Of a stretch of 10,610 nucleotides of DNA, positions 9,026 through 9,860 are shown one piece after another. The translations under genes and the position numbers were made by a program. The stretch is from the IMG/VR virus record IMGVR_UViG_2778261697_000001; one strand, written 5' to 3'. Origin of the DNA: a virus (Duplodnaviria > Heunggongvirae > Uroviricota > Caudoviricetes). Under the pieces are notes generated by a model. It ran no database searches, was not told the origin of the DNA, and saw nothing but the letters and a program-made list of their open reading frames with translations. Each line of letters starts with the position of its first letter. The first letter of the stretch is position 1.

Positions 9026-9799
9026 TCAAAAATTAGGTGAGTAACGGACCGGGGACATAGCTCCTTTTTTTCTTAATTCATCTGGTATTTTTTTTCCAAG
9101 ATAAAGATTTGCTATTTCAGGTGGGGCTTCTCGACCTTCAAAACCATAGCGAGAACTTTGTGTTGCCTCAAAGTCAGGATCCTCGTCCCAGTATTTCATC
9201 GTAGGGAAATTTTCACGTGTTGATTTGAGCCATTTATCAGCAATAAAAACCCCTCGAACGATGCCCCTTACAGTGGCAAGAATGACTTCTGCTTGACTGG
9301 CGCGCGAGGCATTGATGCGCCAGCTAAATCGAACCGCATCATAAAGCTCTGAATCCTTTGCACTTCTGTTAACGGAAATCATTAATGCTTTATGATGAAA
9401 TGTTATGCTTTCGGGTTGATATGTTGCTATCAATTCTTTGACATGCGCGGCGCCGAATTCATTGCTGCCAGCACCATTCATGATATTCGTTAACCCAGGG
9501 TAGGCATCAATAAGTGCTGCTTCAACTTCGTACGCCGTCTTTTCATCAGTCATTCCATGTCGATGGATGACATGGATAACTTCAAGTCCCGCTAATCTTA
9601 TTTCTCTGATTTGCTTTAGCTTGTTGCTCAGTAACTCGTCATCATCAGCCGCTGCCACTTCACCGCGCATATGGGCAAATACGCGGTTACCTTTGCCTTT
9701 CCCTACATAGAAGGTGCTTCCGTCCCTAGGATCAATCAATCGGTATACATACCAGCCAAGGTGTTCAATTACTCCAGAAGGAAACTCAGTAATATCCAT
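9026..9799 (-). CDS. GIY-YIG family nuclease with uncharacterised C-terminal domain of about 140 aa
   Basis: Clear GIY-YIG core: GWYVYRL (GIY), FYVGKGKG (YIG), NRVFAH (Arg), YEVEAALID (Glu) and LTNIMNG (Asn). I do not recognise the C-terminal half. Start uncertain: the ATG at 9799 fits a putative promoter at 9832-9860, while the ORF track uses a TTG at 9850. Confidence 0.8.
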
Positions 9800-9831
9800 T
9801 TTGCAATATCTGTGAATTATTTGTGAGACGT

Positions 9832-9860
9832 ATATTAATGAACATTGCAAGGGCTCACAA
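9832..9860 (-). promoter_or_regulatory. Putative sigma70-type promoter for the GIY-YIG gene
   Basis: On the minus strand: -35 TTGTGA, 17-nt spacer, -10 TAATAT, about 30 nt upstream of the ATG at 9799. Pattern match only. Confidence 0.2.

Follow-up and report, generated by a model that had tools for sequence, protein, structure and literature searches.

What a GIY-YIG nuclease does beyond the tail-fibre genes of a prophage is the question raised by the window analysed here (the whole stretch of DNA, 10,610 nt), which carries the gene for such an enzyme close to its right-hand end. A first-pass annotation had offered three options: an anti-phage nuclease encoded by a single cargo gene of the prophage, a free-standing homing endonuclease, or the orphan of a restriction-modification pair. 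Our analysis indicates that the gene is very probably an allele of PD-T4-3, now renamed CMoRE, a Type IV restriction endonuclease that depends on 5hmC or glucosyl-5hmC, its activity being assigned via a characterised protein of 98% identity. The gene family is already known, its discovery (2022), validation in a native host (2025), biochemistry (2025) and structures (2026) having been published. A PADLOC, DefenseFinder or PDB-sequence search settles the identity of the gene at once, and the value of the present analysis lies in annotation.

PD-T4-3 was first found by functionally selecting genomic fragments of E. coli against T4 (PMC9519451) and comes from E. coli ECOR68, as cited in the text of PMC12923530. 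In the clinical isolate NILS69, deletion of PD-T4-3 resulted in sensitivity to two Tevenvirinae phages, and its expression in K-12 gave protection from four Tevenvirinae phages (bioRxiv 10.1101/2024.12.20.629700). A Capnocytophaga homologue with 48% identity degrades modified T4 DNA and spares T4-GT7 DNA in vitro, and it also cuts Mom-modified Mu DNA (PMC12366544). In case of O157:H7 CMoRE, expression from the native promoter (with the upstream extent of the construct unstated) lowered plating of T2, T4 and T6 about 10^5-fold without abortive infection, and T4(C) escaped the system (Liu et al., PMC12923530). This protein binds and cleaves DNA containing 5hmC or glucosyl-5hmC and spares C and 5mC DNA; cleavage takes place between two modified cytosines in a CN11/N9G arrangement with 2-nt 3' overhangs (PMC12923530). 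Cleavage by CMoRE depends on the modification and not on a strict target sequence, and the T4 genome is depleted in its entirety. It is a tetramer with a 'GIYxY-YIG' motif formed by Y17, Y19 and Y31, and exchanging its acidic lid loop for alanines makes it attack ordinary DNA and become toxic. For its C-terminal domain, the authors report no sequence or structural homologue (all PMC12923530).

Gene boundaries and protein record

The minus-strand open reading frame is intact from 9026 to 9850 and yields 274 aa when counted from a TTG codon, the extent at first assigned to the gene. The intact frame was confirmed and its extent had to be shortened. The first in-frame ATG, at 9799, gives a 257-aa protein with the N-terminus MDITEFPSG, and both the RefSeq CDS WP_097496764.1 and the residue numbering of the crystal structures use this codon. 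The biologically used start is therefore the ATG at 9799, with the TTG at 9850 being a mechanical ORF start only. Between 8500 and 10250, the window is 100% identical to the chromosome of E. coli EJN001, where the CDS carries this accession under the product name 'LEM-3-like GIY-YIG domain-containing protein'. The features of the locus are collected in Table 1.

Table 1. Coordinates of features in the 10,610-nt window.
Feature	Position	Strand	Basis or remark
Two IS1A copies, inverted	1-381 and 10230-10610		Perfect 381-nt arms (100% complementary) at the window ends
OB-fold (tRNA_anti-like) lipoprotein gene	360-692	-	110 aa, compared with 148 aa in strain a15
StfP-like N-terminus plus Gly_rich_2 (PF21722)	5804-6730	+	One uninterrupted 308-aa ORF
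Acyl_transf_3 membrane protein, 355 aa	7407-8474	-	GC ~0.28-0.34; between tail-fibre assembly gene and PD-T4-3
Moron-like cassette, ~1.03 kb (upstream region, gene and hairpin)	8965-9996	-	blastn against EDL933 and ECE218
Downstream hairpin, 3' cassette edge	8971-9005	-	Repeat and fold; kept after the gene in EDL933
PD-T4-3/CMoRE gene, 257 aa	9026-9799	-	ORF, RefSeq CDS, PADLOC, phrog_5356, PDB identity
N-terminal GIYxY-YIG nuclease domain	About residues 1-115 of PD-T4-3/CMoRE		
C-terminal 5hmC/5ghmC-sensing domain	About residues 125-257 of PD-T4-3/CMoRE		
Upstream region travelling with the gene, presumed promoter	9800-9996	-	Identity to EDL933 locus
Upstream hairpin copy, 5' cassette edge	9992-10026	-	Repeat and fold

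Domain and family assignment

The best match in the general libraries was Pfam PF22945 (LEM-3_GIY-YIG) over residues 28-110 with an E-value of 2.4e-14. This match is partial, covering model positions 26-108 of 151, and the generic Pfam GIY-YIG model PF01541 was found below threshold only. With the PF22945 match, the N-terminal GIY-YIG domain that had been proposed was confirmed. A search of the 257-aa protein against NCBIfam returned no family, and the C-terminal ~140 residues had no match in NCBIfam or in Pfam, where matches were limited to residues 16-110. Calling the C-terminal domain unrecognised, as the first-pass annotation did, was fair from sequence alone and still describes the result with these two libraries. 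It does not hold for the family, where this region is the crystallographically defined 5hmC/5ghmC-sensing domain.

Specialised resources gave a direct answer. The PADLOC model PDLC04031 (PD-T4-3) matched with an E-value of 9.3e-140 and 462.5 bits, aligning residues 1-256 to profile positions 1-255 of 256, and a full-length match was obtained to phrog_5356, a PHROG whose function is not assigned. Searching PDB sequences resulted in gapless alignments to 9U75/9U8D (E 1.4e-171) and to 9U7U/9U7Z (E 1.5e-149). By direct comparison, 252 of 257 residues are identical to 9U75/9U8D (98.05%) and 217 of 257 to 9U7U/9U7Z (84.4%). 9U75 represents E. coli O157:H7 CMoRE (WP_000355475.1, the accession also annotated at the EDL933 (O157:H7) locus) and 9U7U/9U7Z represent APEC O1 CMoRE. 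A single-sequence AlphaFold2 model of the protein reached a mean pLDDT of 35.5 and a pTM of 0.27. Taken with the near-identity to O157:H7 CMoRE, the PADLOC result bears out the first of the three options, in which a single cargo gene of the prophage encodes an anti-phage nuclease. Pfam and NCBIfam are blind to the C-terminal domain, and the RefSeq name refers to a domain subfamily and gives no function. Scans relying on these two libraries will thus keep marking the gene as novel.

Residue-level comparison with characterised CMoRE

Alignment to 9U75 predicts a two-domain layout combining a sensor with a nuclease. The tyrosines of the GIYxY-YIG motif are all in place in the alignment (G15-W-Y17-V-Y19 and F-Y31-V-G), as is R39, which is the motif arginine by position, PMC12923530 giving no residue number for the arginine. 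Candidates for the glutamate are found in the stretch Y-E91-V-E93-AAL, the text of PMC12923530 numbering no catalytic glutamate. The run of four consecutive acidic residues reads D52 D53 D54 E55 in this allele, DDDD in the O157:H7 protein and DDDE in the APEC O1 protein. Residues 1-54 are identical to 9U75 and should take in the beta1-beta2 loop. Further, the tetramer-interface residues V92 and L96 are retained together with R80 and with Y127, the residue that in CMoRE contacts the 5-OH of 5hmC through its main-chain oxygen. Residues 116-257 align to 9U75 without gaps and with four substitutions.

Five conservative differences separate the protein from O157:H7 CMoRE (E55D, S131T, A164V, Q169K and N197H), none of them at a residue mutated or named in PMC12923530, and both E55 and N197 are also found in APEC O1 CMoRE. 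The only difference near a ligand contact is S131T, located four residues from the 5hmC-contacting Y127; that it would change which hypermodified bases the allele recognises is unlikely in our view. At the level of what can be read from sequence, this allele carries all hallmarks of CMoRE.

Upstream region, cassette and flanking hairpins

When positions 8400-10240 of the window were compared with EDL933 and ECE218 by blastn, 95-96% identity was found over exactly 8965-9996 and none outside. Starting from the ATG, about 190 nt of upstream sequence are identical to the EDL933 (O157:H7) locus, except for one base near the distal end of this region. A consensus scan of 8400-10300 gave no minus-strand sigma-70 site at 9/12 or better and no intrinsic terminator. 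By eye, a candidate matching 8/12 positions can be found at 9860-9832 on the minus strand (TTGTGA-17-TAATAT, with the -35 element at 9860-9855 and the -10 element at 9837-9832), which is invariant in four alleles and which we infer to be a putative promoter. No clear Shine-Dalgarno sequence was seen upstream of the ATG. The earlier proposal that the gene has its own promoter was thus not borne out by the consensus scan, and what speaks for it is this by-eye candidate and the upstream identity to the O157:H7 locus.

The flanking stem-loops described in the first-pass annotation do exist, with ordinary folding energies. The downstream hairpin starts 21 nt past the stop codon and consists of an 11-pair stem with one bulged base, followed by UUUU (8970-8967). 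Its fold is unremarkable (-14.9 kcal/mol, z -1.5), as is that of the upstream hairpin (z -1.25), and it is likely a transcription terminator. Both are copies of a 35-nt direct repeat, 86% alike, each forming a hairpin with an 11-12-pair stem and one bulge. The two copies coincide with the points at which homology between the prophage contexts breaks off (8965 and 9996). An Rfam scan of the whole window at gathering threshold returned nothing and the flanking hairpins therefore do not belong to a curated RNA family.

The hairpin motif is not specific to this gene. A 43-nt query located it in 5076 of 5426 complete E. coli genomes (~94%), with a total of 10,881 places. In K-12 and BL21 derivatives, which are without PD-T4-3, it lies at the end of the Rac prophage between uspF and ynaM-ydfK-pinR; a further strain has it where a prophage at the prfC site ends. 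Each of the three copies of the motif that were examined is located at the cargo end of a prophage of the lambdoid or Rac type. Our reading is that the 35-nt motif represents a common prophage-end terminator that also marks the joins of cargo cassettes. We consider it unlikely that the motif goes beyond termination and serves as a joint at which prophage ends recombine and exchange defence 'morons'.

Prophage context and distribution

The segment between the IS1 arms corresponds to the distal part of a prophage. It starts with a truncated gene for an OB-fold lipoprotein, followed by genes for a DNA-circularisation protein and baseplate proteins (V, gp46, J/gp47 and YmfQ), and then continues with a glycine-rich tail fibre, a tail-fibre assembly protein, an opposite-strand low-GC Acyl_transf_3 gene and PD-T4-3. 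The baseplate and tail genes have a GC content of 0.55-0.62, compared with 0.28-0.35 in the acyltransferase gene and 0.41-0.46 in PD-T4-3. Both the cargo position beyond the tail-fibre assembly gene and the mixed composition that had been pointed out for the locus were confirmed. In fuller copies of the prophage (strain a15 and others), PD-T4-3 is followed by a gene for a 936-aa SIR2-domain protein and then by a tyrosine integrase gene. Here, the SIR2 gene was removed by the right-hand IS1, leaving about 20 nt of its 3' coding end and its terminator hairpin (remains at 10152-10229). This hairpin, at 10152-10198, is the only fold that stands out (-27.2 kcal/mol, z -3.6). The remnant has the look of a composite-transposon-like unit or of what IS1-mediated deletions leave behind. 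It illustrates that a prophage reduced by IS1 down to its tail module can still keep an intact anti-T-even defence gene.

A number of further observations were made along the segment. On the EJN001 chromosome, the remnant is flanked by genes for a LacI-family regulator and a maltoporin on one side and by rclC on the other. At its left edge, the 3' end of the OB-fold lipoprotein gene runs into the left IS1, so that the gene is truncated or fused. RefSeq annotates a stfP pseudogene and a separate glycine-rich CDS where we find the single tail-fibre frame listed in Table 1; this frame could encode a short tail fibre that is intact and was mis-split in annotation. The Acyl_transf_3 gene is plausibly an O-antigen/LPS acyltransferase gene of the lysogenic-conversion type, and thus further cargo whose product would interfere at adsorption. 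Between its start and the stop codon of PD-T4-3 lie 550 nt of unannotated sequence (8475-9025) with a G8 run near 8947-8954, at which a RefSeq locus-tag number is skipped (RS04500 to RS04510); this stretch may be what is left of a gene, or it may serve the acyltransferase as a long regulatory region. The N-terminal 230 residues of the 936-aa SIR2-family protein match the ThsA SIR2 domain (PADLOC, E 4e-29), the ~700 residues after them having no domain assigned, and its gene may provide the prophage with another defence function.

Two candidate interpretations were discarded. The ORFs flanking PD-T4-3 at 8701-8967 (plus strand, 88 aa) and 9861-10148 (minus strand) were treated as non-coding, neither having a Pfam match or a RefSeq annotation and the former also having no match in PADLOC. 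A carrier phage of the Mu type with Mom-modified DNA, considered in view of the cleavage of Mom-modified Mu DNA by a PD-T4-3 homologue, was set aside as well, only the baseplate and tail module being Mu-like and a tyrosine integrase gene being located ~650 nt past the SIR2 gene in an intact relative.

Of 5426 complete E. coli genomes, 838 contain the PD-T4-3 gene at 95% nucleotide identity or more, and 823 of these matches have a coverage of at least 80%, which indicates that its homologues, for which a pseudogene check had been suggested, show no general decay. Its copies in EDL933 and ECE218 adjoin tail-fibre genes and are bordered by an AraC-type regulator on one side and the pinE invertase on the other; in another context the gene has an acyltransferase gene and a hypothetical gene as neighbours. 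PD-T4-3 is consistently prophage-end cargo with changing neighbours; the proposed search for a conserved partner gene came back empty, and the system is single-component. A megablast search with the gene as query yielded no match among 50,697 phage genomes. At megablast sensitivity, it is thus a prophage or chromosomal cargo gene in that collection that is not seen in sequenced phage isolates.

Weighing alternative explanations

The identification as a PD-T4-3 allele has to be weighed against the two other roles considered at the outset. If the gene encoded a free-standing GIY-YIG homing endonuclease, it would be a selfish element that spreads by cutting a specific site, and its compact ~1-kb cassette, found in more than one context, as well as a similarity to the homing-endonuclease PHROG phrog_314 would fit such a role. 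However, that similarity is weak (E 0.0023, residues 17-148) and confined mostly to the catalytic domain, and neither Pfam nor NCBIfam detected a homing-enzyme DNA-binding module (NUMOD/IENR1/HTH or zinc finger). The gene is located at prophage ends and not inside lytic-phage genes, the megablast search found it in none of the phage genomes, and the characterised protein acts on modified DNA across the entire T4 genome rather than at a defined site. A homing endonuclease is therefore extremely improbable. Similarly, GIY-YIG Type II restriction enzymes such as Eco29kI and Hpy188I exist, and the first-pass annotation was right that the window holds no methyltransferase, none being annotated in the region, as would be expected of an orphan enzyme whose methyltransferase was lost. 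But a Type II enzyme left unprotected would kill its host, whereas at least 823 genomes have an intact copy of the gene, and the annotations of all six contexts examined show no methyltransferase within 7-12 kb. Moreover, the near-identical protein spares unmodified and 5mC DNA and, as a Type IV modification-dependent enzyme, needs no methyltransferase (PMC12923530), which explains why the window contains none. We give the orphan reading next to no weight.

A third alternative accepts the identity of the gene and questions its function: the copy could be intact and silent within its IS1-bracketed remnant, or its five substitutions, S131T in particular, could weaken or shift its modification specificity. 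The remnant is cut off by IS1 on both sides, neither a consensus promoter nor a Shine-Dalgarno sequence was found, and the behavior of related systems points in the same direction. APEC O1 CMoRE under its own promoter gives weak protection only (PMC12923530), and phage NIC06_P2 escapes the native-level system in NILS69 and is restricted by the plasmid-borne system in K-12 (bioRxiv 10.1101/2024.12.20.629700). Against this, the ~190 nt upstream match those of the O157:H7 locus, whose native-promoter construct is strongly protective, and the right-hand IS1 starts ~430 nt upstream of the ATG, beyond the conserved cassette. The substitutions are conservative, and exactly the same protein, WP_097496764.1, recurs in unrelated strains of human and pig origin. 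A silent or altered copy is consequently improbable in our view, though a good deal less so than either of the two other roles. An active PD-T4-3 allele remains the preferred reading, and the gene is presumably expressed and functional here.

Proposed mechanism

By analogy with the characterised 98%-identical protein, the allele would protect its host from T-even phages through cleavage specific for 5hmC and 5ghmC. The enzyme would be a tetramer built as a dimer of dimers, one dimer of which would sense two modified cytosines 21 bp apart with the C-terminal domain serving as the modification sensor. The N-terminal GIYxY-YIG nuclease would then cut between both cytosines (CN11/N9G) and leave 2-nt 3' overhangs. 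The lid loop formed by D52 D53 D54 E55 likely lies over the active site, where it would repel ordinary DNA; host DNA would thereby be spared and no methyltransferase would be needed. Incoming genomes of T-even-type phages would be destroyed directly in a non-abortive manner. The likely benefit for the prophage is that its host would be shielded from hypermodified lytic competitors.

Comparison with known systems

The RefSeq product name derives from the LEM-3/ANKLE1-like GIY-YIG family (PF22945), of which the nuclease domain is matched in part only. Eukaryotic LEM-3/ANKLE1 proteins contain LEM and ankyrin domains, and their targets are chromatin bridges and branched DNA. Compared with the N-terminal GIY-YIG domain of UvrC (PDB 1YCZ), CMoRE differs in that a third tyrosine, Y19, replaces the canonical GIY tyrosine and in that a 15-residue auto-inhibitory acidic insertion is present between alpha2 and alpha3; it has no excision-repair role. 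The catalytic fold is also common to I-TevI-type homing endonucleases and to Eco29kI and Hpy188I. In contrast to the I-TevI type, PD-T4-3 is without a sequence-specific DNA-binding module and does not occur in a phage intron or intergenic homing context, and unlike Eco29kI and Hpy188I, CMoRE spares unmodified DNA and has no cognate methyltransferase.

Functionally, PvuRts1I and AbaSI resemble CMoRE. They are likewise specific for 5hmC and glucosyl-5hmC and not for 5mC, work without a methyltransferase, target T-even phages and show a comparable fixed-distance cleavage pattern between two modified cytosines. Their parts are unrelated, however: PvuRts1I and AbaSI pair a nuclease of the PD-(D/E)XK/Vsr-like kind with an SRA-like sensor, whereas CMoRE combines a GIY-YIG nuclease with a sensor domain for which PMC12923530 reports no homologue.

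In family and architecture, the gene corresponds to PD-T4-3/CMoRE itself, with 98% (O157:H7) and 84% (APEC O1) identity over all 257 residues. The GIYxY-YIG motif, the acidic lid loop, the tetramer-interface residues and Y127 are common to this allele and the characterised proteins, and the gene likewise stands alone at a prophage end. The two loci differ in their flanks, which are formed by the acyltransferase gene and the IS1-deleted SIR2 gene here and by the AraC-type regulator and pinE at the O157:H7 CMoRE locus.
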